Notes under the pieces: model-generated
Database searches by the model: none
What the model saw: only the letters and a program-made list of their open reading frames with translations
Told to the model about the DNA's origin: nothing
Source of the DNA: an uncultured Chloroflexia bacterium
GTDB lineage: Bacteria > Chloroflexota > Anaerolineae > Anaerolineales > UBA4823
Direction: 5' to 3'
Length of the DNA stretch: 64,000 bases
NCBI GenBank assembly: GCA_963822175.1
Contig: CAWGGJ010000003.1
Location: 666,287 to 730,286, forward strand
Position numbers and translations under genes: made by a program
Shown here: one piece after another, positions 4,392-64,000 of the stretch
Layout of the letters: each line of letters opens with the position of its first letter
How positions within the stretch are numbered: the stretch's first letter is position 1

Positions 4392-4419
4392 TATCATCCC
4401 CTTTTTAATTCCCTGAAAA

Positions 4420-4500
4420 GGGGATGATTATTACTCTCAAATTATGTATCGTATATCGGTCAACCGGTACACGGAGAAAAGAATGAAATCAAGTCGATTC
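4420..4500 (+). repeat. U repeat copy 2
   Basis: Homologous to 2366..2447. Preceded by a 13-bp perfect inverted repeat (4393..4405 / 4416..4428). Confidence 0.6.
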
Positions 4501-4554
4501 ACCATCGTGGAATCTCGGCTTGTCGAAATTTAAACCTGTGAGGAGGAAAAGAAT

Positions 4555-4719
4555 ATGGATAAGAAAACTGGTGGAATCATAGCAACAATTGTGGCGGTGC
4601 TCTTATGTGGCTGCCCTGGACTATGCCTGGTCAAGTCTAGCATGGCCAATGACATTTTAACAGTAAACATAATTATTCAAAATATTCCAATGAGATTTCC
4701 TCATTACATAATCTCATAA
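4555..4719 (+). CDS. small ORF (54 aa), possibly a truncated small membrane protein
   Basis: GAGGAGG RBS, then ATG. It starts MDKKTGGIIATIVAVLLCGCPGLCL and then runs into AT-rich non-hydrophobic sequence. Too short for the ORF track. Confidence 0.35.
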   Translation: MDKKTGGIIATIVAVLLCGCPGLCLVKSSMANDILTVNIIIQNIPMRFPHYIIS

Positions 4720-4781
4720 TACTATATTGGAGGAGCAGTTATGATCTTGATTAGGTACTTATAATTGCTAAGTTATCAGTG

Positions 4782-7283: not shown

Positions 7284-7463
7284 GTAGAAATAGCTTTTAC
7301 CTTAAATCAAGATATCTGTAAGCTATACTTCTTGTCTGATGGCTGGATAGTTTGAAATTATATATATTGTTTCGATCGCAATTGTTATATTTTTACGCTA
7401 TATGAGCAATAACAGGATGACTTGATTTTATAGCTTTTGCACACGTAATTAAAAATAAATAAA

Positions 7464-13923: not shown

Positions 13924-15165
13924 CTATCTTGTCAAGTTCACAGCCATCGTGGAATCGGTCAAGGTTTGCATGAACAGGACGATTAGGTTTTCCTCATCCA
14001 CGGTCAGGCCAAGGTCACCGAGCTCATCGGTATTGACTGTAGCGGGGTATTCCGGAGCTGGCCAACCCATTCCTTCGACGTCACGGGTATTATAGAAATG
14101 GGTGATATCGTAGATGGACTTAAAGTAGCCATTGTGCCCATAGGCTTTGATGGTATCGCCCTCACGCTTATCGACATTACGCAGGGTGGGAACTTTGAAC
14201 TTGCCATATTCCTGTTCATAGTCAGCATAACCTGCATTCTCCAGGAACTTCCCCAAGCCCAGATCGATGAAATCTGGATTGCCAACATAAACAGGATTCT
14301 CGGGATTCTTGGGGACACCCAGGTTGTCATAGGTGAAGTCGGTGAACAGAGGGTAACCGGCGGATCCTTCCTCCAGGGTATGACAGAGGGAGCATTTACC
14401 CTTGGTTTGGTCATTAAACAATGCCAGCCCGTAGACCTCGTCATCCGTTAGCCCGAAACCTGAATAATCCATCCAGTTATCAACCGTGATCAGCTTAATA
14501 TCCAGAGGTTCAGCCTTGACAAGGTCATAGAAGCCATCAAACCTGGAGTTGAATGGATTGACTTCATGTGACCGCTCGTAAGCGGCAATTGAGAATCCAA
14601 TCCGATCATAGACCAGTGAAACGCCTTCAGGTGTAGTGCAATCCAACGCACCCCATACCTGCCTGAAAAGCCTGGCATAGTTGGATTTGTATACCTTCCA
14701 GCATAATGTTGCGGCATCGGGCAAGGCCTGCTCTGCAGGGTTCAGGAATGGTCCCTTGGCCTGTTCCGCCAGTGGATCACCCAGCATCCACCCAGAGGCT
14801 CGCCCATCCCAGAACATGCCGCCCACCCATACCTCACCATCATAATAGAGGATCGGGCTTTCACCTGCATAGGCAGAAGCAGGTGGTTTACGATCACCGA
14901 AGGCACCGGGGATCGATCCCTCGTAGACCGCACCATTCTCATTAATTTTTCCATTGGGTCCGGTGAAGCCAAATTCTGCGGCATGGCAGGTGGCGCAGGA
15001 TTGGTTCCTGTTGATCGACAGGGCTTTATCCAGGAAGAGCCTTTTCCCCAGTCGCTCAATGAGACTGGTTGAATCAGCCTTGGCTTCAGCAGGTATCGTG
15101 ATCACCAGAACAACAGCGATCATTATGAAAAGTAACCCAGATATCAATATGACTTTTCTTAGCAT
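13924..15165 (-). CDS. di-haem cytochrome c peroxidase (CCP/MauG family)
   Basis: Two CxxCH motifs (CATCH, CSLCH), an N-terminal membrane/signal segment, and a GAGGAG RBS. Confidence 0.9.
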   Translation of the reverse strand: MLRKVILISGLLFIMIAVVLVITIPAEAKADSTSLIERLGKRLFLDKALSINRNQSCATCHAAEFGFTGPNGKINENGAVYEGSIPGAFGDRKPPASAYAGESPILYYDGEVWVGGMFWDGRASGWMLGDPLAEQAKGPFLNPAEQALPDAATLCWKVYKSNYARLFRQVWGALDCTTPEGVSLVYDRIGFSIAAYERSHEVNPFNSRFDGFYDLVKAEPLDIKLITVDNWMDYSGFGLTDDEVYGLALFNDQTKGKCSLCHTLEEGSAGYPLFTDFTYDNLGVPKNPENPVYVGNPDFIDLGLGKFLENAGYADYEQEYGKFKVPTLRNVDKREGDTIKAYGHNGYFKSIYDITHFYNTRDVEGMGWPAPEYPATVNTDELGDLGLTVDEENLIVLFMQTLTDSTMAVNLTR

Positions 15166-15318
15166 CTTATACTCTCCTCAGTAATTTTTATTAGATAAAT
15201 TTACCGTTAAATAAATATGACGGATACCCTCCTTTCTTCTTTATGCCTGGAATGTAGAGGTGTAATTAAATTTACAGGATCTACATTAAAGATCCTACCA
15301 TCACCCTGATATGTGAAA

Positions 15319-15347
15319 ATTATAACAAAATATTTTGTAGAAGTCAA
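15319..15347 (-). promoter_or_regulatory. sigma-70-type promoter candidate for the peroxidase gene
   Basis: TTGACT, 17 nt, TATAAT on the minus strand. Confidence 0.55.
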
Positions 15348-15495
15348 CTTGGTAATTTTTGTCAATTATTGGGCTTTCATGACGTAGAAAAGGAACCCCC
15401 AAGTGGATAACCCGAACCCGCCAGCGAGCTAATTCCCATGTAAGGGTTTTTTCTTCAGGCAGAGGTGCGAAGGGGATAGCTTGGCATCTCTGCCA

Positions 15496-44807: not shown

Positions 44808-47244
44808 TCAGTGCTTAGCGCATTGTGACTGGGTAAATGTTTGGCTGGTGTTGCCGTCCAGATCGGAAACCATAAATCCCACCAGGTAATCTCCTGCAGG
44901 GGCATAAACGGCAGACCAGGTGAAGACGGTATCACTGCCGAAGGTGAACGTGTCGCCAGGCACTTCAACCACCTGGGTGACATTGCCGCTGGTATCCAAA
45001 TCCATCCATTTTTGCAGGATGGTGAAGGTATCTCCAGTCGGAAGGGGTGATCTCTGCGGGAGCACCGGCATCATCCGTCCCCTGGTAACCATATACCTGG
45101 GTCAGCTTGCCATCCATAAAGAGCAGCTGGGCAAATCTTTGCTCGCCTAAATCAGCAAAGGTATAGGTCCCATTGAGAGCATAAACAGCTTCTTCTGCTG
45201 TGGCACCATAGGTAGTGGGAGTGAATAATGCCAGCGTAGAAGATGTTCCATCTGAAACAGAAAACAGAGAGCCATCCCAGGTGAAGTTGATCTTGAACGA
45301 TTCACTATCCGGCCAGACCGGGTAATATATGCCGTTTAATTCGCGCGTTTCGGAGCTTTCTAGGTAATCCATATCCGCAACAAAGATCGAATTTGAGTTT
45401 GGATCATACAGCCCAATAAACAGGTACACATAGCCAATGTTCTCTCCACTGATGCTGGTGCTCAATTTTACCGATTCTCCAACAGAAAGCGAATCGCTCG
45501 AAGCTGTGATTCCTGATAATGTGATCGTCCCGGCCCCCGGTGCGCGGGAGTTAATCCCTGTGGTTGGGGCAACGGCTTCAGCGGCATCCGCAGTGAAGGA
45601 ACGGTCATTGTAGTGATACGCCAGGAAATCATCCCATAATGAAGAAGTAACAAAACGTTCGGCAAGGATATTGTAGGATTGCGGACCGGTATAAGGTGAA
45701 TTGTATGTGGTGGAGTTGGGGAAATAGATGGCAACCCCGGTGGAACCAGGCTTGCCCGTGCCATGTTTTTCGGCCACGATAACATTATTCATCGCCGTCA
45801 TGACCGCATCCGCGGCCTGGGTAACCTCATTACTATTTACCTCCCGGGAGACAAGCTGCACAAAGTGACCCAGGTCAATGTAGGATGGACCAGATTGCTT
45901 GCCAAATACACTGGTGTAGGATTGGGCATAGTTTCTTGCAGAAGCAATGATCGATTGGTCCTCGCTCTGTAATAGATAAGCAAAATTGTTGAATTGTGCC
46001 ATCAAGTCCGGTAGTGCATCCAGGTCCACTGCGGTGAGGGTTACACTGCGCCCAATTTGCTCTGCCAGCTGCCCGGCACTCACACTGTTGGTACTAAAAA
46101 AACTACCCATGGGTGAGCCCTGCCTGAGGAACTCCGCCCTGGCCTGGTCATCCACAATGCGCGAGTCCTGGTTTATATAAGTATCCACAACTTCTGAGGC
46201 CAGCTGTTGTGTGCTCATATCCGGGTTATCCACCAGCGCTTGCAGGAAAGCGGCATATGCCCATCCCAGGGATGGCTCAACTTCTTCCGAAGCTAGGGCT
46301 ATGTGAGCATGTGGCTGTAATGCTGCATACACTTCCATCTGGCTCATCAGGCAGGCATCCATGCCGATGATATCCAGCTTTTCCACCCCGGTCTGGCTGC
46401 TGATTTCCGAAAGCGCCTGGTCGATCTCAGATAGGAAAAGGAAATCCTCACCCAGGCCGGTGGCCAATGGGGCAGGACTGCTATCCCTGCCTCCCGGTGC
46501 CGGGTCGCTCCACCCACCCGGCCAACCCATGCCGTGGTCAGACAGCACCAGGGCATAGCGATCGGCAGGGTAATTTTGCATCGCCCAGGTGACAAAATCC
46601 ACCAGAGTATTTCCATCAGCCATATTCACTTCACCCAGGTCATCCAGCAGCTGCGAGTTGATGCGGTCGAGATCCTCATCCTGTGTCACCAGGTAGCGGC
46701 GGACAGATGTCCAGTCACCATCGCCCTGGTAGGCACCCCGGTAGCGATCCAGCTGCGCTACAATGGTCACCCGGTCGGTCGATCCAGCTCGCTCGGCTTC
46801 GTTCAGGTCGACAAAAATATCCTGCTCCAATACCTGGTCATCTGCATCGTCGTACAGCATGATCAACCATTTTTGACCTGACTGACCTGTGACGGGTACC
46901 CGGGTTGGGCGTGGCGTGTTGGTAGGACCGCTTTCCACCAGCGGACTGCTTTCGGTCGGTGGTTCGTAGAGTGGGGCAGATGTGTCCCCTTCACTCCCAC
47001 CGCCCCCACCCAGCAGGACATATAGAATGATGACGATGACGACGATCACCCCGCCACACCCACCCAGCTTACCTTTGGTGGGAATATTCATTCCGCCCCC
47101 CAGGCTGGGTCGATATGAGCCACCCCCGCTTCCGCCGGTTCCCCCAGTGCTGCTCGAGGGAGGCCTGCTTGGGGCTTCAGCGCGCTCAGTGGGTTTATCT
47201 GCCTTGCGGCGCCGTTGGACATCAATTTCAGGTTCGTTGCTCAT
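44808..47244 (-). CDS. membrane-anchored clostripain-like (peptidase C11, clan CD) protein, split by one frameshift near 45044-45047
   Basis: His/Cys dyad context LSDHGMGW and IIGMDACLM, one N-terminal TM helix, and GGAAGGAG RBS before ATG 47244. The C-terminal ~85 aa continue in another frame (ORF 44808..45092) across a G4/C4 run. Confidence 0.75.
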
Positions 47245-47386
47245 AGCGCATCTCCTTCCGGAGGTCATTGGTGATTATAGGATTGTAATACAATATTTTA
47301 TCCGATGATAAATGAAACATCACCCATTTTTCCCTCATCCATTTTAGTGGAGTCCATTTACTTAAAGCATTGTGATCAGATGGCTA

Positions 47387-47414
47387 TTGTAATTGTGAAT
47401 AATGGCGCGATAAT
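47387..47414 (+). promoter_or_regulatory. promoter candidate of beta-helix copy A
   Basis: TTGTAA, 16 nt, GATAAT. The same arrangement is conserved upstream of copies B and C. Confidence 0.45.
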
Positions 47415-47533
47415 AGGTATCAGCATCCGTATGTCCCACTATTTTGACTGAGGGAGATAGATATTCGGAAATATTAGAACCAGCCAAAGTGGAATTATCA
47501 TTTAATTGCGAGCATGAAGTGAGGAGGGTTACC

Positions 47534-50500
47534 ATGAGGAAAAAAGCTGCTTTCATAGTCCTTATTTTTATTCTTAGTCTTGGGTTGACACTTGCCTGGT
47601 TGTTAGGTGCACAGGCTTCTCCGGGTGTTGCCGCTTCTCCCTCTGCAGATCTGCACGTCTGCCTATCGGGCTGTTCATATGAAAACGTGCAGGATGCGGT
47701 GGATGCTAGCCATCGATGGGGATATCATCAAAGTGGCTGAGGGCACCTATACCGGTGTGAGTGCCCGCGAAGGGATCACCCAGATGGTCTACATCAGCGA
47801 GTCGATCACCATCCAGGGCGGCTACACCACGAGTGACTGGGAAACCCCAGAACCGGAGGTCAACATCACCACGCTGGATGCCAGGGGCAAGGGCGCGTGC
47901 TGTATATAGTGGGCATCTTTACTTCAAGCATCGCGGACTGCATATCACAGGTGGTAATGCCACAGGTCTTGAGCCTAACCAGAACGGTGGTGGGATTTAT
48001 ATGGATGCAAGTTGGAACTGGGACGAAGAACCAGCTCATTTACAGATAATCATATCTATGGAAACATAGCCAGCAAGGCGGTGGGGTCAATGATGACAGT
48101 TATGGCTCAGTGTATAGTGGAAACACCTTCAGCTCGAATTCTGCAGATGAGGGGTGGTGGGATGGCTACTAGATACTCTTCCCAATAAAGAACAACGTTT
48201 TGAGGAGAACAGCGCTTCTTCGGGTGGTGGACTGGCAGTACTGTATGGAAGTGTCATTCTGCAAGGCAATACTTTCACTGGTAATAGTGCTGGAAATTCA
48301 GGCGGTGGGTTGTTCAGCTACAATAGTGAATTGGTTTCTGACGCAGATAGTTTCAAATCAAATAGCGCACAATATGGTGGTGGATTGGCCATTTAAAACC
48401 CGATTGGCAGAGCTGGCAATATGTCAAAGTGGTCAATACCCTTGTTACAAACAACCAGGCTAGCGTAGAGGGAACGGGCATCTACATCTCCGGCATCTTG
48501 CTCCATTTGTGGCATACCACTCTGGCAAGTAATACCGGTGGGGATGGCAGCGGGCTCGCCATCGGTAACTACAATCCCGGGTCTGAAGCGTACATATCCA
48601 ATGTGGACCTACGCAATACGATTGTAGCGAGCCAAACCATCGGCTTGAACGTCAGCGACGGCAGCTCGGTAGCGTTGATAGCATCTTGTGGTACAGACCC
48701 CATCACCGTTACGAGGTACCTGCGGCAGAAGTGTCACTGGTCAACCAGCTTACCGGCGACCCAGATTTCAGCGACCCCGACAACGGCAATTTCCATATCG
48801 GCCCAGCTTCAGCTGCACGTGACACCGGGATGGTGAGTGGGTACCACCGACCTTGATGGATTCGTGCGTCCTATGGGGTTCGGTTATGACCTGGGTGCCT
48901 ATGAACATGCAGATGCTGCCTCAGCCTGCTTAAACGCCTTCGCTGAGCGGTGCCAATGTGGGCGCGAGCTAACTTATCAAATTGTTCTCACCAGCACCGG
49001 TGTGGGAGACATATCAATGTCGTGTTCACCGACACACTGGACAGCCCTGCCCGCGTCATATCAGTTGATCATGAAGGGAACTGCATCATCGAAGACCAGG
49101 TGGGGTGGTAGGGTCGTCTGTGAACCCGGTAACCTGAACATCGGTGATGTGATCAATGTCCTGGTTACAGTTGAAATTGACGCCAGTACGCCCTCAGACA
49201 GGCGCTGACCAACACGGTTACCGCGCGGTCAGACAAGGCTGGCACAGTACCCAGTCGATCATGTATGCCCAGGACTGTCACGTGCGTATCGGCGATAGCC
49301 CATCCGAATACACCTCTACCAGGCTGCTGTTGATGCGGCTTACCCTTTTGCTTGATCAAGGTGGCAGGCACCTGCGTCGGAGTGTTTGGACCAGAGGATA
49401 TCCGTCAACAGGTTTACCTGGATAAGAGCTGACCATCCAGGGAGGATATAACACCAGCAACTGGACCACGCCTGAACCTGAGACTCAACATCACCACTCT
49501 GGACGCTCTGCGGCCTGGGTCGTGTGTTCTATATCCTGGGTGATAGCGGCCTCAACACAATCACCATTGATGGCTTTGACATCACCGGAGGGAATGCTTA
49601 TGGGCAGATCGGAGACCACGATCCAAATGGGAGAAATGGAAGCTCAGGTGGAGGAATTTATATCTACGGTGGGAATGAACAGATCACGCTATCCAACAAC
49701 CACATCTATAACAACACAGCCAACGGCGGTGGGGGTTTGACCACCAGCTTCTGCAGTGGAACCCAACTCATCAATGACACCTTCACTGGTAACTACGCTG
49801 GGAGTGGAGGTGGTGGGTATTACCTGCATGCTGGTGGTGCTAATCTGACAGATGTGATCTTCGACTCAAATATTACCGCTGGTAACGGCGGAGGGATCGA
49901 TGTGATTGCTGGTAATGCCAATATCGTACGCGGAGCATTTATCAATAATCAAGCTGGTGGAATTGGTGGTGCAATGCGAGCTGAAATGGGCTGGTCTATC
50001 AACGAGTAAGTTATCTACTCCAATACAGCTAAGTATGGTGGCGGGATCGGAATATCTGATTTCACGAATTGGTCCACGTACACCAGCATCATCAACACAG
50101 AGATTGCTGGTAATTCAGCCAGCCAGGAGGGCTCGGGGGTATTCATCCCTTCGGGTCAAGTTTACATCTGCTTCATACTACCATAGCACGCAACACGGAC
50201 GGGGATGGGAGTGGTGTGACCTTGGTTGGTATGACTGGATGTCGCCAGGTGTCTCAACTTTGCTGATGACGGATACCATCCTTGCCAACCAAGAGGTGGG
50301 TATCAAGGTGCAGTGATGCCAGCACGGTCACGGTAAACAGCGTGCTCTGGTTTGCCAATACAGATGAACGTCTGGCAATCGGATGATGCCACGGTGTATC
50401 TGTCGAACGAACATACGGGCGACCCGCTCTTCCTCAACCCAGATTTCGGTGACTATCACATCGGCGAAACCTCTGCTGCCGGGATATGGGTGTGCCGAGT

Positions 50501-50615
50501 GGAGTGACGCTGGGATATAGACGGTGAGCGCCGCCCAATGGGTCCAGCCTGGGACCTGGGTGCAGACGAGTATTTTCTGAACTCGATCTTTCTGCCATTG
50601 ACCATACGTCATTAA
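47534..50615 (+). pseudogene. beta-helix/DUF11 surface protein paralog A, decayed (many frame changes)
   Basis: Homology to copies B and C is spread over at least 9 ORF fragments in all three frames. The RBS, signal peptide and C-terminal tail (IFLPLTIRH) are still recognisable. Confidence 0.8.
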
Positions 50616-50657
50616 TAACCTGGTAGTTTATAGCTGGTCTAACAGTTGATATAAAAC

Positions 50658-50687
50658 AACGCCTCGCTGATGCGAGGCGTTTGTTTT
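50658..50687 (+). terminator. intrinsic terminator after copy A
   Basis: AACGCCTCGC-TGAT-GCGAGGCGTT followed by TGTTTT. Confidence 0.75.
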
Positions 50688-50815
50688 ACTTGACACGATG
50701 GAATTATTCCCAAATTACTAACTGTTTCCTCCCCGTATCTGTGGTAAAATTTACACCTTTCTTAGGCGGACAGGATTTCCAATAAAAATCATTGATCCAT
50801 TGTGGTGTTGTGGAG

Positions 50816-50843
50816 TTGTAATTGTGAATAATGGCGCGATAAT
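50816..50843 (+). promoter_or_regulatory. promoter candidate of beta-helix copy B
   Basis: TTGTAA, 16 nt, GATAAT. Confidence 0.45.
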
Positions 50844-50960
50844 AGGTTCAGCATCCGTACATCCCACTGTTTTGACTGGGGTAGATAGATATTCGAAAAA
50901 ACATAATCAGCCAACGTGAAATCATCATTCAATCGCTAGTATGAAGTGAGGAGGGTTACC

Positions 50961-53900
50961 ATGAGGAATAAAGCTGCTTTCATAGTCATTATTTTTATTC
51001 TTAGCGGTGGGTTGACCTTTGCCTGGTTGTTAGGTGCCCAGGCTTCTCCGGGTGTTGCCGCTTCTCCCACTGCAGAGCTGCACGTCTGCCCATCGGCCTG
51101 CCCATATGAAAATGTGCAGGATGCGGTGGATGCTGCTACCGATGGGGACATCGTCAAAGTGGCTGAGGGCACCTATACCGGCGTGAGTGCCCGCGAAGGG
51201 ATCACCCAGATGGTCTACCTGAGCAAGACCATAACCATCCAGGGCGGCTACACCACCAGTGACTGGGTTACACCTAATCCGGAGGTCAATATCACCACGC
51301 TGGATGCCCAGGGGCAGGGGCGCGTGCTGTATATCGAAGGGGGTTATTGGGGTACTCCCACCATTGCTGGTCTTCATATCACCGGTGGTGACGCCCTCGA
51401 ACAAGCGAATGACCAAAATGGCGGTGGGGTGTACTGTTCACGGGGATACGGGATCACGCTTTCAAACAACCACATCTTCGAAAATACTGCCCAGGAGGGC
51501 GGTGGGGTCTATATGGATAGAGGCCATAACGCCACTTTTAATGGGAATACCATTAGCTCAAATACTGCCGAGGCGAATGGCGGAGGGATCGCATTTTTAC
51601 AAGGAGGAATATTATTAACTGAAAATGCCATCACCGCTAACACAGCTGGCCAGGGAGGCGGGCTGGTAACGCGATATAGCAATGTTACCCTCAATGGGAA
51701 CACCTGCAGCTTCAATATTGCTTATACTGAGGGTGGTTGTATGTTTGTGTTCAATAGCACGCTGGAACTCGATGCTAATGTCATTAATTCGAACATTGCT
51801 GAACGAGGTGGTGGGATGGCAAGTTTTGGTTCCCAGGAATCAGCAGGTTAACACACTTGTGGCCGACAACCTGGCCAGCCTGGAGGGATCTGGGATGTAT
51901 ATCTCAGGCTCCTCAATCCATCTTTGGCACACCACCCTGGTGCGCGACCTCGGGAGCCCGGTCAGCGGGATCGCAATCGGTAGCTGGAACCCCTGGTCAG
52001 GGTCAGACTCCTCGACGGTAGCTTTGACCAACACGATACTGGTGAGCCAAAACGTGGGGATGGACGTCACGGATGGCAGCCTGGTCGATGTAGACAACAT
52101 TCTTTGGTATAACACCCCCATCACTATATCGCAGGTGCTTTCGGCAGTGGTGATGGTAGAGAACCAGATCACAGGCGACCCAGACTTCATGGATCCAAGC
52201 AGTGGAGACTACCATATCGGTGTAGCTTCTGCCGCGCACGACGTCGGAATAGAGGCTGGGGTAACGACTGATATCGACAGCCAGGTGCGGCCAATGGGTT
52301 TCGGTTATGATCTTGGCGCGGATGAATTCGGCGAGGCTGCTTTAAGCCTGATTTTAGGTCCTTCCCTGGTGGGGGTAAACGTGGGGTCGGAATTGACCTA
52401 TCAGATCGTGCTGACCAGCAGTGGGACAATGAATACCAGCGGGGTGGTACTAACTGACACACTCGATACCATGCAACGGGCGATTGGGGTTGAGGCACCC
52501 GGTGGGAACTGCACGATCGAGGACCCGGGGTGGGGAGGCAGGGTGGTGTGCGCTCCTGGCACACTTTATCCCAACGAAGTCGTCACCATCTTGCTCACCG
52601 CCCAGGTGTCTGGCTCGGTTCCCTTGGGACAGGCAATGAGTAACCAGGTTGTGGCTAGTGCTAATGAGACGATCAACCGCACCAAACAGGTAACGGTGTA
52701 TGCCCAGGATTGCCATGTGCGCATTGGGAATGAGGTGACAGAATATTCTTCCGTCCAATACGCAGTGGACGCAGCCTATCCCACTGCACTGATCAAGGTG
52801 GCTGGCACCTGCATGGGTGTGTACGGCTCTGAGGGCTGGCAGCAACAAGGTTATCTGGATCAGAGCCTGACCATCCAGGGCGGCTATACCACCACCAACT
52901 GGACCACGCCGGATCCAGAGCTTAATATCACCACGCTGGATGCGCGCGGGCACGGGCGAGTGTTTTTCATCACTGAAACTGATGATATCGTCATCGATGG
53001 TTTGTATATCACTGGTGGGGATGCAAGCGAGCAACTTGGCGGTGAACATGGTCAGGGCGCAGGAGGAGGGCTGCTATGCTGGATTGCGCAAATTTCACTG
53101 ACCAACAACCACATCTTTGAAAACACCTCTGGAGGTATGTACACGGGTTTCTGCAACGGGGATATCATTGGGAACACATTCAGCGAAAATATTGGCACCG
53201 GATTATATTTGCATGCCAGTGGGCCTGTGTATGTTATTGAAAATATCTTCGACTCGAACAGCGGTACAGATGGAGGTGGAATGTGGGTGGATAATACCGG
53301 CGCTTACCTCTACAGGAATATCTTCACCCATAACACCGCTGTTAATGGTGGTGGGCTGTTCCTGTACTTGAGTGGGCCGATGAACGAGGATGGGTCACCC
53401 GCGACTAAGTCACTTCTCAACGAGAACATCATCGTTTCAAATACAGCTGAACGTGGCGGTGGACTGGTAATCACAAATGACGGAAGTGGGACTGGCACCT
53501 TAACTAACACAGTTATCGTCGATAACCAGGCTAGTATCGAGGGTGCTGGGATATATATTAATCAAGCTCTCAATGTCAAATTGTTGCAGACCACTCTTGC
53601 CCGCAATCGCGGCGGGGATGGCAGTGGCGTGTGTATTGGTGAATCACCCATAGGAGGTCAACAGCCATGGCACTCTACCGTGGTCATGACCAACACCATC
53701 CTGGCCTTTCAGGATATAGGAATCCGGGTGACTGAAGCGAGTACCCTCACTGTAAATGGTGTACTATGGTTTGCCAATACAGATGATGTCTGGCAATCGA
53801 ACGATGCCACGGTGTACCTGTCAAACGAACATACTGGCGATCCGCTCTTCCTCAACCCCGATTTCGGTGACTATCACATTGGCGAACCTCTGCCGCCCGG

Positions 53901-54032
53901 GATATGGGTGTGCCGAGTGGAGTATCGTTGGACATAGACGGCGAGCGTCGTCCGATGGGTCCAGCCTGGGACCTGGGTGCAGACGAGTACTTCCTGAACT
54001 CGCTCTTTCTGCCATTGACCCTGCGGAATTAA
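50961..54032 (+). pseudogene. beta-helix/DUF11 surface protein paralog B, two frameshifts (near 51845 and 53885)
   Basis: ORFs 50946..51851 and 51682..53937, plus a third-frame tail ending LFLPLTLRN at 54032, together reconstruct one ~1020-aa homolog of copy C. Confidence 0.75.
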
Positions 54033-54073
54033 TAAAACTAGATATTTATCTGAGGTCTTCCAGTTGGTAAAAA

Positions 54074-54108
54074 ACATACGCCTCGCATGATGCGAGGCGT
54101 ATGTTTTA
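54074..54108 (+). terminator. intrinsic terminator after copy B
   Basis: 14-bp perfect stem ACATACGCCTCGCA / TGCGAGGCGTATGT followed by a T run. Confidence 0.8.
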
Positions 54109-54237
54109 CTCGACACGATGGATTAATTCCCAAATTACTAACTTTTTTTCCCTGATTTGTGGTATTAAAATTGATGCCTTTCTGAGGCAAACAGGATCGC
54201 TTATAGAAAATTATTGATATGTTTGTCTAGTTTAGAG

Positions 54238-54265
54238 TTGCATTTATAAATATTAGCGCGATAAT
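54238..54265 (+). promoter_or_regulatory. promoter candidate of beta-helix copy C
   Basis: TTGCAT, 16 nt, GATAAT. Confidence 0.45.
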
Positions 54266-54381
54266 TGGATAAGTATCCGTACACTCCACTTTTCTGACCA
54301 GGGGAGGCAGAGATAAGCAGAGCAGGAACAGCCAAAGTGGAATCATCATTCAATTGCTATCATGAAGCGAGGAGGGTTACC

Positions 54382-57300
54382 ATGAGGAAAAAAGTTACTT
54401 TCATAGTCCTTATTTTTATTCTTAGCGGTGGGTTGACGCTTACCTGGTTGTTGGGTGCACAGGCTTCTCCGGGTGTTGCCGCTTCTCCCACTGCAGAGCT
54501 GCATGTCTGCCCATCCGGCTGCCCATATGAAAACGTGCAGGATGCGGTGGACGCAGCCAATGAGGGAGATATCATCAAAGTGGCGGAGGGCACCTATACC
54601 AGCGTGAGTGCCCGTGAAGGAGTCACCCAGACGGTCTACCTGAGCAAGACGCTCACCATCCAGGGTGGCTACACCACCAGTGACTGGGAGACCCCAGAAC
54701 CGGAGGTCAACATCACCACGCTGGATGCTCAGGGGCAGGGGCGGGTGATCACAATCAAGGGCGAAATTGCATCCACCATTGCTGGACTGCACATCACCGG
54801 TGGCAATGCCCTGGTGATGGATGATAACCATAATGATGGGGGCGGCATTTATACCCAACTGAATATGTTACCTGCTGGCACTGTCCTGACGCTGAAGGAC
54901 AACCATATCTACGGGAACACCGCCTGGAGTGGCGGGGGAGCTTATCTTGACGGTCATGGTGATTACCTGCTGGAGGGCAACACCTTCGAAACCAATACTG
55001 CCAGCGATCGCGGCGGTGGGGCGGTGGTCTTCAACCAGTTTGCTACCCTGAACAACAACAATTTCGATCACAACAGCTGCGGCAGCATGGGTGGTGGGCT
55101 GGCAATCCTGTATGCCGACGCCATCCTGCAAAGCAACAGCTTTACCGAAAACGAGGCGGGGGAGGCCGGCGGTGGGTTGTTTGTGTACAACAGCTCCTTC
55201 GAGGCGGAGGGAGATTGGATCGTAAAGAACAGTAGCGGGCGCGGCGGCGGGTTGGCTGTTTTTGGTGAAATGAACCGCCATACCTGGCGGGATAACTGGA
55301 TGGTCAATGTAGTCGTCGCCTACAATGAAGCCACCACAGAGGGCTCCGGCATATACGTCGGCGGCTGCCCGTTGCACCTGTGGCACGCCACCCTGGTAAA
55401 TAACATCGGCGGAGGTGACAGTGGCATCCTGATCGGCGACTGGAATCCCTGGGACATCCCCACCACTTCCGAGGTCGAGCTGCTCAACACGATCGTGACC
55501 ACGCAGACCACCGGCATTGCGGTGGGAGACGGTAGCTCAGTGGCGGTCGACAGTATCCTGTGGTATGCGGATGCCATCACGCTCACCGAAGTGCCCGAAG
55601 CGGACGTCTCGATTGTCAACCAGTTCACCGGCGACCCAGCCTTTGCTGACCCACCCGCGGCAGACTTTCACCTCAATCCCACTTCAGCAGCACGCGACGT
55701 AGGGATGGTGAGCGGGGTAGCCAGTGATATTGACGGATGGGTGAGACCGATGGGTTTCGGCTTTGACCTGGGTGCTTTCGAACACCACGACGCAGCCATC
55801 AGCCTGTCTGCAATACCGCACCTGAGCGGCGCTAATATTGGGGAGGAGCTCACTTATCAAGTTGTGCTAACCAGCAGTGGTGCGGGAGACAACGTCAACG
55901 TGATCCTGACCGACACGCTGGATGCATGGCAGCGCCCTCTAACAGTTGATTCGCCAGATGGGAACTGCAGCATCGAAAATCCGGATTGGGGCGGCACAGT
56001 GGTCTGCGAACCCGGCAACCTGAACATCGGTGATGTGATCGATATCCAGGTGACAGTCGAAGTCGACGCTGCAGCATCACTGGGTGACGAGCTGATCAAC
56101 ACCGTGACCGCGCATGCAGACAAGGCTGCTAACACCGTCCAATCGGTGGTGTATGCGCAGGATTGCCACGTGCGCATCGGCAACAGCCCCACCGAGTATA
56201 CTTCGGTGCAGGAGGCAGTGGAGGCGGCCTATCCATACGCGCTGGTGAAGGTGGCAGGCACCTGCATGGGCGTCTATGGGCCGCAAGGAGCACGCCAGCA
56301 GGTCTTGCTCGAGCAGACACTGACCCTGCAAGGTGGCTATACCACCGCCAACTGGACCACGCCCGACTCTGAGACCAACATCACCACGCTGGACGCACGC
56401 GGATTGGGGCGTGTGCTGTTCATCAACACCCAAACGCCAGGTGGAACGTTGATCGACGGTCTGCACATCACCGGCGGGAACGGTGCTTACCAGGTGGGTG
56501 GGCATTCACCGTTCGAACACTTTGGAAGCCGCGGCGGTGGGGTGTATGTGTATGGCTCTGACCCCACGTTTTCGAACGATCACATCTACGGCAACATCAC
56601 TCCTGAGGAAGGCGGAGGCATGGCGACCAGCTTCTGCAACTGTACGGTCCGTAACACCACCTTTTCCGGCAATACGACGCTGACGGTGGGAGGTGGATTG
56701 TCAGCCCATGCCGGTGCCGCTGAAGTGTATGACAGCCTTTTCGAAGGGAACAGCGCAGAGACCGGTGGCGGATTCGGTTCAGCTGCAGCGGGGGGTGGTC
56801 GTTTCTTCCGCACCACCTTCATCAATAATCATGCCACTGGTTACGGCGGCGGTTTAGCACTTGAAACGGCAGCCTGGCTGAATGAGACAGTGATCCTGAA
56901 CAATACGGCAGAGCGCGGGGCGGGGATTGCCTTTTTCGAAGGGATCAGCCCATTTAGCCCCTATGCCGTTCTGACCAACACTGTCATAGCCGACAACCAG
57001 GCGACGTTGGAAGGCGCGGGGGTTTTCATCCCTTCGGGAGGGGCGGTGAAAATGCTGCACACCACCCTGGCACGCAATATTGGTGGGGATAGCAGCGGTG
57101 TGACCCTGAGCTGGTACGACTGGATGTCGCCTGGAACTTCGACTCTACTGATGACGGATACCATCCTGGCATATCAAGACGTGGGAATCAAGGTGAGTGA
57201 TGCCAGCACGATCACGGTAAATGGGGTATTGTGGTTTGCCAATACAGATGATGTCTGGCAATCGAACGATGCCACGGTGTACCTGTCAAACGAACATACT

Positions 57301-57498
57301 GGCGATCCGCTCTTCCTCAACCCGGATAACGGTGACTATCACATAGGCGAGACATCTGCTGCACGGGATATGGGTGTGCCGAGTGGCGTGACGTGGGATA
57401 TAGATGGCGAGCGCCGTCCAATGGGTCCAGCCTGGGACCTGGGTGCAGACGAGTATTTCCTGAACTCGATCTTTCTGCCATTGACCCTGCGGAATTAA
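54382..57498 (+). CDS. secreted right-handed parallel beta-helix (PbH1-type) repeat protein with a central DUF11-like domain, paralog C (intact)
   Basis: GAGGAGGG RBS and signal peptide. Two homologous modules are present (cap C..C.YE.VQ.AV.AA, then L.IQGGYTT..W, then GGG-containing helix turns, then GDP.F..P..GDYH...SAARD.G......DIDG..RP.G...DLGA.E). They are separated by a DUF11-like fold (LTYQVVLTSSG...C). Confidence 0.85.
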   Translation: MRKKVTFIVLIFILSGGLTLTWLLGAQASPGVAASPTAELHVCPSGCPYENVQDAVDAANEGDIIKVAEGTYTSVSAREGVTQTVYLSKTLTIQGGYTTSDWETPEPEVNITTLDAQGQGRVITIKGEIASTIAGLHITGGNALVMDDNHNDGGGIYTQLNMLPAGTVLTLKDNHIYGNTAWSGGGAYLDGHGDYLLEGNTFETNTASDRGGGAVVFNQFATLNNNNFDHNSCGSMGGGLAILYADAILQSNSFTENEAGEAGGGLFVYNSSFEAEGDWIVKNSSGRGGGLAVFGEMNRHTWRDNWMVNVVVAYNEATTEGSGIYVGGCPLHLWHATLVNNIGGGDSGILIGDWNPWDIPTTSEVELLNTIVTTQTTGIAVGDGSSVAVDSILWYADAITLTEVPEADVSIVNQFTGDPAFADPPAADFHLNPTSAARDVGMVSGVASDIDGWVRPMGFGFDLGAFEHHDAAISLSAIPHLSGANIGEELTYQVVLTSSGAGDNVNVILTDTLDAWQRPLTVDSPDGNCSIENPDWGGTVVCEPGNLNIGDVIDIQVTVEVDAAASLGDELINTVTAHADKAANTVQSVVYAQDCHVRIGNSPTEYTSVQEAVEAAYPYALVKVAGTCMGVYGPQGARQQVLLEQTLTLQGGYTTANWTTPDSETNITTLDARGLGRVLFINTQTPGGTLIDGLHITGGNGAYQVGGHSPFEHFGSRGGGVYVYGSDPTFSNDHIYGNITPEEGGGMATSFCNCTVRNTTFSGNTTLTVGGGLSAHAGAAEVYDSLFEGNSAETGGGFGSAAAGGGRFFRTTFINNHATGYGGGLALETAAWLNETVILNNTAERGAGIAFFEGISPFSPYAVLTNTVIADNQATLEGAGVFIPSGGAVKMLHTTLARNIGGDSSGVTLSWYDWMSPGTSTLLMTDTILAYQDVGIKVSDASTITVNGVLWFANTDDVWQSNDATVYLSNEHTGDPLFLNPDNGDYHIGETSAARDMGVPSGVTWDIDGERRPMGPAWDLGADEYFLNSIFLPLTLRN

Positions 57499-57824: not shown

Positions 57825-59387
57825 ATGCAAACACGAAGATGGATACTAATACTTTTCGCTTTGGTAGCAGGATTAGTTTTAACAGCGGCTTTTCTTGCTA
57901 TTCTGGCGCGTCCCGTCTCAGCAGATGCAACCATTCTTTATGCTAAACCAGGCGGGGCAATCTCTGGATCGTGCGATAGCTGGGATGACGCCTGTGACTT
58001 GCAGTTCGCTCTCACCTCGGCCATCTCAGGCACCGAAATCTGGGTGGCGCATGGAGTGTACACACCCGGGATGGATATAGAGTCAACCTTCCAACTTAAA
58101 ATCGATGTTGCCCTTTATGGCGGCTTTGCCATGACTGAGACGCTACGCGACCAACGTAACTGGCAGCTCAACCTCACTGTGCTGAGCGGTGACATCGATG
58201 GCAACGATACCACCGACCCCAACGGCGTGGTGACGGATACGAATAATATCCATGGCAACAACGCCTTTCATGTTCTGGACGGCAGCGGGACCAACGCCAC
58301 TGCCATCCTGGACGGATTTACCGCCACAGCTGGAAATGCAATCGGAACTATCGGCTATTACGACGCCCTAGGCGGTGGGATGATTATTACACCATCCGGT
58401 AGTCCTACCGTTCAGAATATCAGTTTTATTGGCAACCATGCCAACGGTTATGGCGGAGGATTTTATAATGAAGGTAACCTGGTACTCTCCCATGTTGTTT
58501 TTATTAATAACACATGCAATAATGGGGGTGGGGGCATATTAACTTACGGGAGTCCCGTCCTCACCGATGTGGATTTCATCGGGAATCAGGCAGTTATCGG
58601 CGGAGGACTTAACATCCAGGGGAGTTACAATACCGTGACCATCAACCAGGCCAGATTTATCGGGAATCGCGCGTTTAGCAATACGTATTACACATATGGC
58701 GGGGGAATGTATGAAAATCAGGGAGAGGGCAGCAGCCTGAACCTGACAAATGCGATATTTAGTGGAAATATATCGACCTGGTACGGCGGTGGAATGGTAA
58801 TTTCTGTGGGTGATGTACAGATGACCAATGTTCTCTTCTACGGCAATTGGGCTGGCGATTCCGGAGGCGGGATGTCGATTTATCAAACCGCTCCTGAGAT
58901 GACGAATGTTACCTTCAGCGGTAACTGGTCAAATTATGGTGGGGGGATCTATATCGATGCACTTAACGGCTTCCCACTCAACCTAGCGAACAGCATCTTT
59001 TGGGGGAATTCCGGACCATATGGAAGTCAATTCGACAAACAAATCTGGATTCATGCTGGACTGGTGAACGCCTCGTACAGCGACATTCAAGGTGGATATA
59101 CCGGCGAAGGCAATATAAACGTTGACCCACAATTCACTTTTCCCATCACCGCCACCGTTGCACCCACCACCACCGGTGATTATCACTTACAGATCATCTC
59201 TCCCGCCATCGATGCTGGTGATAACCGAGCTATTGCTGTCACCACCGACCTGGACGGCAAAATGCGTAAAATGGATATAGCCAGTGTGCCCGATACGGGC
59301 TTCGGCACACCACCGATTGTGGATATGGGTCCTTACGAAGATGGCTTGGTTGTCAGGTTCTTCTTGCCCGTCATTTCAAAGGAATGA
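57825..59387 (+). CDS. secreted beta-helix repeat protein D
   Basis: Signal peptide, repeated N..GGG..(N/I) turns, and C-terminal TDLDG..R......DMGPYE followed by the tail FFLPVISKE. Confidence 0.8.
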   Translation: MQTRRWILILFALVAGLVLTAAFLAILARPVSADATILYAKPGGAISGSCDSWDDACDLQFALTSAISGTEIWVAHGVYTPGMDIESTFQLKIDVALYGGFAMTETLRDQRNWQLNLTVLSGDIDGNDTTDPNGVVTDTNNIHGNNAFHVLDGSGTNATAILDGFTATAGNAIGTIGYYDALGGGMIITPSGSPTVQNISFIGNHANGYGGGFYNEGNLVLSHVVFINNTCNNGGGGILTYGSPVLTDVDFIGNQAVIGGGLNIQGSYNTVTINQARFIGNRAFSNTYYTYGGGMYENQGEGSSLNLTNAIFSGNISTWYGGGMVISVGDVQMTNVLFYGNWAGDSGGGMSIYQTAPEMTNVTFSGNWSNYGGGIYIDALNGFPLNLANSIFWGNSGPYGSQFDKQIWIHAGLVNASYSDIQGGYTGEGNINVDPQFTFPITATVAPTTTGDYHLQIISPAIDAGDNRAIAVTTDLDGKMRKMDIASVPDTGFGTPPIVDMGPYEDGLVVRFFLPVISKE

Positions 59388-59741: not shown

Positions 59742-61271
59742 TCATTTTATCATCACCGGAAGCCAGAAATTCACCAGGATCACATACTCAAATGATCCAA
59801 TGTCATTTGCAGCACCTTGCGGACGGGGCATACCGCGCTGATCCACAGTCACCGGATGACCATCGGGATCCGTGGAAGATGCAGCATCGATCGCCGGACT
59901 ACCTGCTAATAATGCATGCGTTGGGGTATATCCGCCATGATATCCCAGTGGTCCGAGCATGGGGTTTTCCCCATAAATGTTGCCGGTCTGATCGCCTGTG
60001 ATGGTGCAACCGCTTGTATTTTGGATCAGATTGTAACCATAGGAACTGAATGTTCCAAAGCAATCCGGTCCGTTCGGGCCATCACCACCCGCCAGCAAGG
60101 TATTTTTCAAAATCACCAACGTGCCGAAATTATAGATTCCACCGCCGCCTGCTCCGCCGGCTGAGTTGCCACTTAAGCTGACGTTAGTCAGCGTCAAAGT
60201 GGACTCGCTGGAGTTGTACAACCCTCCGCCCCGGTTGCCGGCAGTGTTACCACTGAAGGTGACATTCAACAGCGTGGAAGTACCAAGATTAATCATCCCA
60301 GCGCCTTGGTCATTGGCAGAGTTACCGCTGAAGGTGACGTTGGTTAGCGTGGATGTCCCAGGATATTCGGTGATCATTCCTCCACCACTGAGATTGATGG
60401 CGGAGTTATCCATGAAGTTAACGTTCATCAGCGTGGCAATATTAGTGTTCGTCATCCCTCCACCATGGTACTTGGCGGAGTTACTGAGGAAGGTGACATT
60501 CGTCAGTGTGGCTGTGCCAGGGATACCGTTGAACATCCCACCGTTTTTAGGAGCGGAGTTGCCAACGAAAACGACATCCGTCAACATGGCAATACCAGCA
60601 TTATGCATCCCGCCACCGTTTCCATCATATGAGGAAGGTGTGGCAAAGTTCCCGTTGAAGACGACGTTCGTGAGCGTGGCGGTGCCAGTGTTATAAATTC
60701 CACCGCCGTAAACATCCGTGGAATTCGTGTTGAAAATAACGTTTGCCAGGGTTGCGTTGCCATAATGATTGTACAACCCACCGCCACCATGCTGGGCAAA
60801 ACTACCACTAAAAGTGACATTCATCAGCAAAGTTGTACCAGAGTTATACATCCCGCCGCCTGAATTAATAACACCAGTGGCAAAACCATTGGCAATGGTC
60901 AGACCTATAAAAGCCGTGCTTCCAGCCGTTACACGGAAAATTTGAGAAGCATGGTTACCATCGACTGTCAGGCTATCCGGTCCGGGACCATTGATGGTCA
61001 GATTTTTATCAATAAATAACGGACCCAGATTTAAGACGATCGTCCCACTAACACTGAAGTTAATCGTATCCCCAACATCTGCAACCTGGATCGCATCTCG
61101 CAGCGAGCAATCACCATCGCTGCAGCTGCCGTCGTTTTCATCGGCAAGGGTATTAACGGTCAGCGTGGCTGCCAGGGTTTGTTTCGGTGACAGCCCACCA
61201 CTGATCATCATTACACAAAGGAGGAGGACGAGAAATATTCTTGATTGGCTGATATTTCGATTGGTGGACAT
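59742..61271 (-). CDS. secreted beta-helix repeat protein E (CSLRDAI-type N-terminus, resembling what NCBI names choice-of-anchor Q)
   Basis: Signal peptide, DGDCSLRDAI motif, about 14 GGG-containing turns, and VDQRG.PRP.G...DIGSFE followed by the tail NFWLPVMIK. Confidence 0.8.
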   Translation of the reverse strand: MSTNRNISQSRIFLVLLLCVMMISGGLSPKQTLAATLTVNTLADENDGSCSDGDCSLRDAIQVADVGDTINFSVSGTIVLNLGPLFIDKNLTINGPGPDSLTVDGNHASQIFRVTAGSTAFIGLTIANGFATGVINSGGGMYNSGTTLLMNVTFSGSFAQHGGGGLYNHYGNATLANVIFNTNSTDVYGGGIYNTGTATLTNVVFNGNFATPSSYDGNGGGMHNAGIAMLTDVVFVGNSAPKNGGMFNGIPGTATLTNVTFLSNSAKYHGGGMTNTNIATLMNVNFMDNSAINLSGGGMITEYPGTSTLTNVTFSGNSANDQGAGMINLGTSTLLNVTFSGNTAGNRGGGLYNSSESTLTLTNVSLSGNSAGGAGGGGIYNFGTLVILKNTLLAGGDGPNGPDCFGTFSSYGYNLIQNTSGCTITGDQTGNIYGENPMLGPLGYHGGYTPTHALLAGSPAIDAASSTDPDGHPVTVDQRGMPRPQGAANDIGSFEYVILVNFWLPVMIK

Positions 61272-63236: not shown

Positions 63237-64000
63237 CTATGTACATTCACCAAAATCGCAACGGTTGTTATTATTGCTATCTGTATAACGCCGGCATTGC
63301 CCAGGGAACGAACAGTGCCTGCCACACTGGATGCTGCAACTATCACTCGATGAGAACCAACCGGATGAAGATTGGGGAACACCCGACTGGTTGATATAGT
63401 AACTTGAGGAATTGCTTGTTTCATCCTGGATGGTCGTGCTGCCTTCTCCGCCCTGCAATGCTGCCAGGCTCCTGGTGGCACTCAGCATGGCAATTAACGA
63501 TGCACCTCCCGCTACCCCAAACACCTTCAAAAAATCCCGCCGGTCCATGGAGTGCCTGTCGACTGGAACCGGCTGCAGCTGGGGTGATTTTGCAAGCGTG
63601 GGGACGGATGGTATTACAATTGCCCTGGTTGTTTTGGATATCCACCGCCAGTGGAGCGCCAGTTTGACCATGAGCGCCAGCAGGGTTGTTATGGATGCAA
63701 TAATGTGAATGGTGAGCCAGCTGGTGTAGTTGTTGAGGGGTACTCCCAGCCAGGTGGAAATGACCAGCCCGGTGAGGATGATCAGGGCAAAACCTGCCAG
63801 CAACAAGCCATCAACAATGTACTTGAGTAACACGTTTCCCGATACATTGTTGAACAAACGCTTGCTCACTGCATCCACCCAATCGAGTGGATCAGCAGGT
63901 GATAAAGTGCCAGCAAGCCGCCAAAGGCACCGATCCACTGGTGTAGCTCGATGCCAGTAAAACTCAGGAAAAATGCCAGCAGGAATCCTGTAAACAACAA
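63237..64000 (-). CDS. DUF4405-like membrane protein with a twin-arginine-like segment and a Cys-rich C-terminus (partial at window edge, one frameshift near 63878-63880)
   Basis: HQWIGAFGGLLALYHLLIHS (frame of 63866..64000) and LALHWRW (frame of 63237..63938) are typical of DUF4405 helices. RRDFLKVFGVAGGASL is TAT-like. The C-terminus is CSIQCGRHCSFPGQCRRYTDSNNNNRCDFGEC. Confidence 0.6.
   Translation of the reverse strand, partial: VVYRIPAGIFPEFYWHRATPVDRCLWRLAGTLSPADPLDWVDAVSKRLFNNVSGNVLLKYIVDGLLLAGFALIILTGLVISTWLGVPLNNYTSWLTIHIIASITTLLALMVKLALHWRWISKTTRAIVIPSVPTLAKSPQLQPVPVDRHSMDRRDFLKVFGVAGGASLIAMLSATRSLAALQGGEGSTTIQDETSNSSSYYINQSGVPQSSSGWFSSSDSCSIQCGRHCSFPGQCRRYTDSNNNNRCDFGECT

Follow-up and report, generated by a model that had tools for sequence, protein, structure and literature searches.

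Why would three neighboring genes be so alike at both ends and so different in the middle? This question is raised by a tandem array of three genes for predicted cell-surface proteins in an uncultured bacterium of the Anaerolineales (Chloroflexota). The array lies in a 64-kb stretch of chromosomal DNA (contig CAWGGJ010000003.1), the whole of which was analyzed and is referred to here as the window. A first-pass annotation of this DNA, made from the sequence alone, had proposed a surface-protein variation system that keeps silent or decaying donor copies next to an expressed gene. We conclude, with a probability of roughly 0.8, that the genes (A, B, and C) are three old paralogs whose ends were overwritten by gene conversion, which is concerted evolution of the ends and not switchable variation.

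Three Tandem Units With Conserved Ends and Divergent Centers

A repeat search identified three units of ~3.42 kb arranged head to tail, with start-to-start spacings of 3427 and 3421 nucleotides (nt) and ATG codons at positions 47534 (A), 50961 (B), and 54382 (C), in agreement with the first-pass annotation. The units and the parts of them that are discussed below are:

47387..50815, forward strand: unit A, with the promoter-like box at 47387-47414, the leader at ~47421-47533, a probable pseudogene of the A type (47534-50615), and a terminator hairpin (50652-50689) with a spacer behind it
50816..54237, forward strand: unit B, consisting of a promoter-like box (50816-50843) which is the same as that of A, a B-type gene (50961-54032) with two frame breaks, a hairpin (54071-54107), and then a spacer
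54238..57498, forward strand: unit C, in which the promoter-like box (54238-54265) is a variant, with a leader and a C-type gene (54382-57498; 1038 amino acids) that is intact; the conserved terminator is lacking
47387..47890 (A), 50816-51317 (B), and 54238-54738 (C), forward strand: 5' homogenized tract, with upstream DNA, leader, signal peptide, and N-terminal cap
50283..50615 (A), ~53703-54032 (B), and ~57130-57498 (C), forward strand: 3' homogenized tract, with the final turns of the beta-helix followed by the second choice-of-anchor Q domain and the tail at the C-terminus
53767..53858 = 57232-57323, forward strand: block of 92 nt that B and C share without differences, inside the 3' tract

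In a three-way MAFFT alignment of the units, identity is 85-93% over the first ~500 nt (~147 nt of them noncoding) and 82-94% over the last ~330 nt of the coding region, and only 42-71% in the ~2.4-kb center, in line with the earlier description of a strongly diverged center between conserved ends. The 92-nt identity between B and C, also reported before, is exact, and it breaks off at both edges of the block. Each of the three units has a GCGCGATAAT box, a ~113-nt leader, a GGAGG ribosome-binding site (RBS), an ATG, and a signal peptide, as had been described, with the qualification that the promoter-like box of C is a variant. The upstream box has the form TTGTAA-N16-GATAAT. A and B share, without a single difference, a 32-nt stretch, TTGTAATTGTGAATAATGGCGCGATAATAGGT (47387-47418 = 50816-50847), whose score is that of a promoter-like site; in C it is present as a variant. 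The terminators that had been noted after A and B were located as hairpins with T-runs at 50652-50689 (-23.6 kcal/mol) and 54071-54107 (-27.7 kcal/mol), and no homolog of them was found 3' of C.

The Ends and the Centers Have Different Histories

The three array copies (wA, wB, and wC) were compared with family genes from other loci, including the three units of L006 (r1, r2, and r3), L8a and L8b from L008, and L54c from L054. A codon alignment of 12 genes was made after the frames of A, B, r1, and r3 had been repaired by frameshift-aware protein-to-DNA alignment, and neighbor-joining trees of the 12 sequences were calculated with 200 bootstraps, the center being defined as C residues 135-900. 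The center tree resolves types A, B, C, and D with 94-100% bootstrap overall: the A-type (wA, L8b, r2, and L10a; 100%), the B-type (wB and r1; 100%, with L4b joining), the C-type (wC and L54c; 100%), and the D-type (r3 and L8a; 100%). The trees of the ends conflict with this grouping. wA, wB, and wC group together in the N-end tree (99%), and the C-end tree contains one group of r1, r2, and r3 (98%) and another of wA, wB, wC, and L10a (93%). r3 had initially been assumed to be the ortholog of wC, an assumption that was rejected because the 12-sequence tree pairs r3 with L8a as a fourth type.

The positions at which the relationships change were located with a 40-codon sliding window along the residues of C. 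The nearest neighbor flips at residues ~105-120 and ~900-916, being a paralog from the same array outside these points and an ortholog from another genome inside them. Homogenization thus affects ~110 codons at the start of the gene, together with the DNA upstream of them, and ~120 codons at its end, and the typed center comprises ~780 codons. For the center of wC, L54c is nearest in every 40-codon step from residue ~102 to ~880, collinear and with 82-96% nt identity per step; wC and L54c (L054 16453-19566) are 86% identical at the amino acid (aa) level. The center of wA is 85-95% identical in nt to L8b (L008 8717-11824). Conservation of the centers between genomes (86% aa identity for both wA/L8b and wC/L54c) is close to that of the S1 protein on the same contig pair (79%).

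Synonymous divergence (dS) among the copies of the array is 0.22-0.34 at the N-end and 0.40-0.66 at the C-end, and exceeds 1.7 or is saturated in the centers, so that dS is about tenfold lower at the ends than in the center. Between genomes, dS of the N-end is 0.67-1.03. The noncoding upstream DNA behaves in the same way, with 73-84% identity within the array vs. 56-66% between genomes. The pair wA/L8b shows the reverse of what is seen within the array, as its ends (dS 0.9-1.3) are far more diverged than its centers (dS 0.26-0.48), which indicates that the ends were replaced after the two lineages had split. The ratio of nonsynonymous to synonymous divergence (dN/dS) is 0.08-0.33 for the centers and 0.13-0.38 for the ends; judged by this ratio, the centers evolve under purifying selection.

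One could ask whether conversion is needed at all, since strong purifying selection on the promoter, the signal peptide, and the anchoring domain might keep the ends alike and leave the centers free to diverge. The ends do encode parts that work with shared machinery (transcription, Sec, and possibly a sorting step), and the low dN/dS of the ends fits such constraint. However, synonymous and noncoding sites have been homogenized as well (dS 0.2-0.7 vs. saturation; of the 143 upstream columns scored, 101 are the same in A, B, and C) and the ends group by genome and not by type (98-99% bootstrap). Selection alone cannot yield ends that are more diverged than centers, as found for wA/L8b, and we give this explanation almost no chance.

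Recombination was also detected directly. The first-pass annotation had called for recombination tests on the aligned copies, and the pairwise homoplasy index (PHI) test, in our own implementation, gave p = 0.001, which is the permutation floor. Triplet tests in which wA was modeled as a combination of an L8b center and wB ends, and wC as a combination of an L54c center and wB ends, gave p ≤ 0.0002. Exact runs of at least 35 nt between units occur at the ends only, and the center of C shares none with A or B. In the 3' block, the longest identical run between B and C spans 93 columns vs. a permutation mean of 35 (p = 0.00025); the 92-nt block is therefore longer than expected by chance and marks a more recent conversion tract within the older 3' one. 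Taken together, the conflicting trees, the low dS of the ends, the PHI and triplet tests, and the nested tract uphold the earlier inference that gene conversion has operated among the copies. That inference is correct, yet the window by itself would not have sufficed to establish it.

One motif that had been cited in its support needs another explanation. WYDWMSPG had been reported in A and C only, as a sign of mosaic similarity. It is indeed absent from B-type proteins, and in the second module the similarity between A and C starts ~20 codons further upstream than that of B, but the motif is common in the family. Its sharing therefore reflects type and is no evidence of conversion between A and C.

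An internal tract was observed in another genome. In L006, the DUF11 regions of r2 and r3 (~11500-11950 vs. ~14970-15420) are 87-95% identical (dS 0.47), with ~60% identity on either side. This segment is an internal conversion tract, and conversion is therefore not always confined to the ends.

Predicted Architecture of the Array Proteins

Copy C is an intact open reading frame (ORF) of 1038 aa, as stated by the first-pass annotation. Its N-terminus reads as a typical Sec signal peptide (MRKK, a hydrophobic core, and AQA|S). The choice-of-anchor Q model NF041518 matches C twice, at residues ~425-467 and in the C-terminal copy, with 48.2 bits against a cut-off of 25. The DUF11/CLIPPER model PF01345 scores 24.3 bits, just below its cut-off of 24.6, and homologs are annotated with PF01345. 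In addition, C matches DUF5123, and weak matches were obtained to beta-helix sequences (DUF1565, chondroitinase B, and NosD). The AlphaFold2 (AF2) model of C has a mean predicted local distance difference test (pLDDT) score of 73 and contains two runs of short strands (residues 40-416 and 620-975; pLDDT mostly 80-95), forming two beta-helix modules with a beta-sandwich (residues 473-599) between them. In Foldseek searches, the sandwich corresponds to the CLIPPER domain of the fibrillar adhesin 9ifr (TM score 0.72, E = 4e-6) and the helices come near phage tailspike beta-helices; the search with the whole model is dominated by the immunoglobulin (Ig)-like domain.

Aligned over 449 residues, the two halves of C (residues 39-475 and 592-1038) have 37% identity (E = 6e-78), which bears out the internal duplication described by the first-pass annotation, with two modules around a DUF11-like domain. 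The two choice-of-anchor Q matches, the DUF11 match, and the two beta-helices of the model are in agreement with it. Each gene probably encodes a Sec-secreted, cell-surface protein with two right-handed beta-helix modules, each closed by a choice-of-anchor Q domain, and a DUF11/CLIPPER domain between them. The domain content would suit a surface adhesin-like or glycan-binding role. No enzymatic function was suggested by Foldseek and no catalytic family was convincingly matched. PADLOC gave no defence-system match for C, the neighboring peptidase C11 gene, and two further neighbors. The array proteins thus share domains with the families NF041518 and PF01345 (PDB 9ifr), namely two choice-of-anchor Q segments and an Ig-like domain that superposes on CLIPPER. 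These are domain families and not a described system, and they are silent on tandem arrays and concerted evolution.

Conversion of the Ends or a Variation System

The observations can be brought together as follows. The central types A, B, and C (and D in relatives) predate the split of several related lineages, and both ends of every unit have been overwritten repeatedly by intrachromosomal gene conversion between neighboring copies. At the 5' end the converted part comprises the upstream DNA, promoter-like box, leader, signal peptide, and N-cap, and at the 3' end the last ~120 codons with the second choice-of-anchor Q domain and the short C-terminal tail. Such overwriting leads to ends that are alike within a genome and centers that resemble orthologs elsewhere. 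RecA-dependent homologous recombination requires near-identical pairing, and for this reason conversion tracts would be expected to stop where identity collapses. The conserved ends could also let units be gained, lost, or reordered by unequal recombination, which would explain why relatives carry differing sets and orders of types at the same site. Conversion in this array homogenizes the ends and does not diversify the middle.

The variation system proposed earlier, with C expressed and segments of the silent or decaying copies A and B being copied into C to vary the exposed protein, makes different predictions for the 5' ends and for the center of C. A and B have kept their own promoter-like box, RBS, ATG, and signal peptide. 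The center of C tracks its ortholog L54c throughout, exact matches of C to A or B that reach 35 nt are confined to the ends, and the central types are stable across genomes and appear to be under purifying selection. Another genome carries two intact copies (L008), and no recombinase, invertase, or reverse transcriptase is encoded nearby or elsewhere in the window. Such a system would account for the clear operation of gene conversion, for the single intact copy in this array, and for similar situations in relatives, as L054 has a frameshifted family copy besides its intact C-type gene, L055 has a truncated copy beside an intact one, and the internal DUF11 tract of r2 and r3 in L006 has been converted. 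Nevertheless, the complete 5' ends on all units, the lack of patches from A or B in the center of C, and the signs of purifying selection led us to abandon the proposal, and a variation system with silent donors is very improbable here.

State of Copies A and B

Counted by frameshift-aware alignment, copy A needs 29 frame corrections against r2 and 28 against L8b, both intact orthologs, and contains one in-frame TAA at 50007; the first-pass figure of at least 8 frame changes proved far too low. As a control, the intact wC needed zero corrections against the r2 protein. Plain DNA alignment was not used for this purpose as it inflates frameshift counts, giving many spurious compensating indels between the intact wC and r3. 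For copy B, two single-base corrections had been reported. Two breaks are present and the second is a 1-nt deletion at 53885, but the first, near 51838 (51834-51842) in a loop, is a deletion of 11 nt relative to r1 and 8 nt relative to L4b.

Several points weigh against concerted evolution of the ends, or against the decay of A and B, as set out above. When the copies of the window are taken alone the mosaic signal is weak, with one of six triplet tests significant, so that the case depends on metagenomic relatives. These comparison loci come from different, mostly uncultured metagenomic populations, and some are long-read assemblies with frameshifts of their own. The limit on the conversion tracts is taken from general knowledge of RecA-dependent recombination, and the function from domains and a model with a mean pLDDT of 73. 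Finally, the 42 indels by which A differs from L8b are all 1 or 2 nt long; deletions outnumber insertions by 34 to 8, and 20 of the deletions make a run of 2-4 bases shorter. As single-base frameshifts also occur in two of the 11 checkable flanking genes, the extent of decay in A and the second lesion of B may be partly consensus error. These data point to a sporadic background of single-base indels, as found in long-read assemblies.

An assembly or consensus artefact could take two forms. In the strong form the repeat itself is mis-assembled or duplicated, which is contradicted by three centers that are just 42-71% identical and each have their own ortholog in other genomes. The weak form accepts the array but attributes most frameshifts of A, and the 1-nt frameshift of B, to long-read errors, so that more of the copies would be functional. 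The small size and deletion bias of the indels in A fit this form, all the more as wC and L54c, which are likewise 86% identical, differ by zero indels; so does the state of repaired A, which is 86% identical to the intact L8b with a dN/dS of 0.18 and a single stop. A single-base frame change is also seen in the C11 gene and in the gene at the right edge of the window, related long-read loci show similar single frameshifts, and structural differences among co-occurring strains at the locus could lower local consensus quality. On the other hand, errors would have to be ~45 times as dense in unit A as in the flanks. The TAA at 50007 derives from TCG by a CG-to-AA double substitution in an otherwise conserved stretch. 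In a relative-rate test with r2 as outgroup, the wA branch has 132 changes vs. 90 for L8b, of which 71 vs. 33 are nonsynonymous (p = 0.005 and p = 0.014). Nonsynonymous changes make up the whole excess, and other outgroups gave the same direction more weakly. The first lesion of B is a deletion of 8-11 nt, and L055, an Illumina assembly, has a truncated copy as well. Artefact in either form is an unlikely explanation for the array, although it remains the strongest competitor among those considered here.

As a way to tell error from decay, the distribution of the indels in A was compared with that of divergent segments (rho 0.2-0.6, p 0.04-0.7), and the longest indel-free stretch is 647 nt (p = 0.04). 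The nonsense codon and nonsynonymous excess of A and the 8-11-nt deletion of B look genuine. In our judgment A is quite probably a real, young pseudogene, and chances are about even that a considerable part of its small indels is artefactual. The graded decay described by the first-pass annotation therefore holds on this sequence (C intact, B with two breaks, and A with 28-29), with the reservation that part of the indel load of A may be assembly error. A and B are most likely non-functional remnants and not programmed donors.

Comparison With Known Systems

The closest likeness is to paralogous surface-protein genes of Helicobacter pylori, babA/babB(/babC) and homA/homB, of which one segment is similar within a genome and another is orthologous. 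PMC3960876, in summarizing Pride and Blaser (2002), describes 3' segments of babA/babB and homA/homB under concerted evolution. Conversion in these genes is regarded as intragenomic and of the RecA type, and the assignment of paralogs to loci varies among strains. The array likewise has a segment that is similar within the genome, a segment that is orthologous between genomes, and homogenized silent and noncoding sites. There are also differences. babA/babB are dispersed whereas the array copies are in tandem, and in the array both ends plus promoter and leader DNA are homogenized. The babA/babB products are Hop-family beta-barrels of a host-adapted pathogen, whereas the array encodes beta-helix/DUF11 proteins of a free-living Chloroflexota bacterium. 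A chimeric center and a phase-variable repeat were not found in the array.

Silent-cassette systems, in which donors have neither promoter nor start and pass segments to a single expression site, offer a second comparison. The array resembles pilE/pilS of Neisseria, vlsE/vls of Borrelia, and msp2 of Anaplasma in its clustered copies, conserved flanks, divergent middle, active conversion, and defective copies beside an intact one. The donors in those systems are incomplete, however, whereas every unit of the array is a complete gene, and conversion in the array is limited to the conserved ends, the centers being stable orthologous types under apparent purifying selection. In the array we found no promoterless donors, no segmental transfer into the variable region, and no diversifying selection or rapid turnover.

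Beta-helix adhesin families such as the polymorphic membrane proteins (Pmp) of Chlamydia are also multi-copy, partly tandem, and predicted to be parallel beta-helix surface proteins, with frameshifted members being common. The Pmp repeat PF02415 was detected in two neighbors of the array and not in A, B, or C, and no autotransporter barrel domain was detected in any of these proteins. Unlike Pmp proteins, the array proteins lack an autotransporter beta-barrel; the host is presumably monoderm, and the anchoring end consists of choice-of-anchor Q plus a short tail.

The mechanism is not new, and the pattern matches that of the Helicobacter outer-membrane protein paralogs. The array is a new example, of modest interest, of a known evolutionary pattern in a little-studied phylum. 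It provides a quantified case of segment-restricted concerted evolution in Chloroflexota, a phylum in which the biology of the cell surface has hardly been studied. The promoter and leader have been homogenized together with the signal peptide and the anchoring end, while the predicted ligand-facing beta-helix cores persist as stable types. In addition, it shows that one fixed site of the chromosome holds a surface-protein locus with structural polymorphism. A practical lesson is that frameshift-rich copies in repeat arrays of metagenomes need confirmation at the level of reads before they are named decaying cassettes.

Related Loci and Variation of the Array

The family is large in Chloroflexota metagenomes, with many matches of ~1030 aa and the same architecture. 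No literature on the family in Chloroflexota was found; only DUF11 grappling-hook filaments in Litorilinea turned up. A scan of genome contigs recovered one related metagenome-assembled genome (MAG), and a scan of metagenome contigs with the family alignment yielded mostly distant matches on short contigs, by which little was gained. The array is syntenic in L006, L007, L008, L054, L055, and L010, where it lies between epimerase or C11 genes and a helix-turn-helix (HTH) gene. The related loci are:

L006, MAG CAVZEP01: C11 gene (76% aa identity), three units, and HTH gene (52%); fully syntenic
L008, metagenome contig: xseA, xseB, DUF212, epimerase, two intact units, and the beginning of a third
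L054, metagenome contig: flanks of the L008 type, further beta-helix genes, an A-like unit with a broken frame, an insert of 3.2 kb, and a C-type gene that is intact
L010, contig from the sample of L054: matches L054 at 88-93% identity but has no 3.2-kb insert
L055, short-read (Illumina) assembly: C11 gene, a truncated B-type remnant, and one intact gene
L001 and L053, other contigs: single genes located elsewhere than the array site
L004, other contig: a gene pair

Comparison of the array among relatives, which the first-pass annotation had also called for, showed that the set and order of types differ at one chromosomal site, being A-B-C in the window, B-A-D in L006, D-A-? in L008, and A'-C in L010 and L054, with or without an extra 3.2-kb unit. 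The difference between L054 (13102-16307) and L010 (5806-6009) is a 3.2-kb, unit-sized segment with PKD/CLIPPER ORFs, and represents a structural polymorphism of the array between co-occurring populations. L004 (750-5462) encodes a family member of 1570 aa with three beta-helix modules vs. the usual two. Family residues 1-1025 and 49-1038 align to it in overlapping registers, as expected from out-of-register recombination between internally duplicated halves.

The GCGCGATAAT box, which is -10-like, and blocks of the ~113-nt leader are kept upstream of family genes in at least six genomes. The box and the leader blocks, the latter for example CCACT...TGAC..GGGGAGGCAG...AGTGGAAT, are found in the window at 47405-47533, 50834-50960, and 54256-54381, and the conservation covers upstream regions of L006, L001, L008, L054, L010, and L055. 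Rfam (gathering threshold) and tRNA scans of the window gave no match. RNAalifold analysis of 14 leaders returned one 5-bp helix (-2.1 kcal/mol) without compensatory change or covariation, and a structured leader RNA is therefore unsupported.

A Conserved C-Terminal Tail

Directly after the choice-of-anchor Q domain, a tail of the form [FYW][FLY]LP[LVM]xx[KR] plus 0-2 residues is present in all five beta-helix genes of the locus and in the 18 homologs that were read (18/18). In the window it is encoded at:

57469-57495, forward strand: tail of C
59358-59384, forward strand: tail of the first neighbor
59745-59768, reverse strand: tail of the second neighbor
50586-50612, forward strand: tail of A
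54003-54029, forward strand: tail of B

The array proteins end in ...FLPLTLRN with nothing beyond the motif. As no hydrophobic helix follows it, the tail is not an LPXTG-type (sortase) signal. NCBIfam sorting-domain models did not match the family proteins, and neither a Pfam or NCBIfam model nor literature was found for the tail, which may be an undescribed sorting or anchoring tag of Chloroflexota. A bolder view of the locus would see the conserved ends as recombination handles of a population-level cassette-exchange locus that swaps at least four beta-helix types into and out of a single chromosomal site in Anaerolineales, with the tail as a surface-sorting tag possibly processed by the C11 (clan CD) protease. 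We regard this view as speculative and rather improbable.

Flanking Genes and Chromosomal Context

Next to the array the following genes were found:

44829..47268, reverse strand: membrane-anchored C11 (clostripain-like) peptidase, divergent to the array (PF03415, E = 5e-37; transmembrane segment at residues ~70-90)
57825..59387, forward strand: beta-helix protein of smaller size that has PMP repeats, a choice-of-anchor Q domain, and the tail FFLPVISKE
59742..61271, reverse strand: second PMP-repeat choice-of-anchor Q protein (choice_anch_Q, 81.5 bits), ending in FWLPVMIK
63243-64000, reverse strand: gene at the right edge of the window, with a frame change near 63885 relative to the L054 homolog (q19-56 in frame -1 and q58-271 in frame -3)

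The syntenic C11 copies in L006, L007, and L055 are 76% identical to the C11 gene of the window. In the latter, an extra T near 45036 shifts the frame, and the last 69 codons (45035-44829) continue in another frame with 88% identity to a relative; the frameshift either arose very recently or stems from an error in the consensus. Of the 11 flanking genes that could be checked, only the C11 and the right-edge gene have such a frameshift and nine are intact.

The window is ordinary chromosome, with genes for ClpC-like, RadA-like, ribosomal S1, and thiolase proteins and xseA among others. The best named relatives of the S1 protein are from Anaerolineales MAGs (up to 81% identity). Window positions 4001-8000 have a GC content of 0.36-0.39 vs. 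~0.50-0.60 elsewhere and encode an 833-aa WD40 beta-propeller protein and a PD40-repeat protein; this segment may be a horizontally acquired island.

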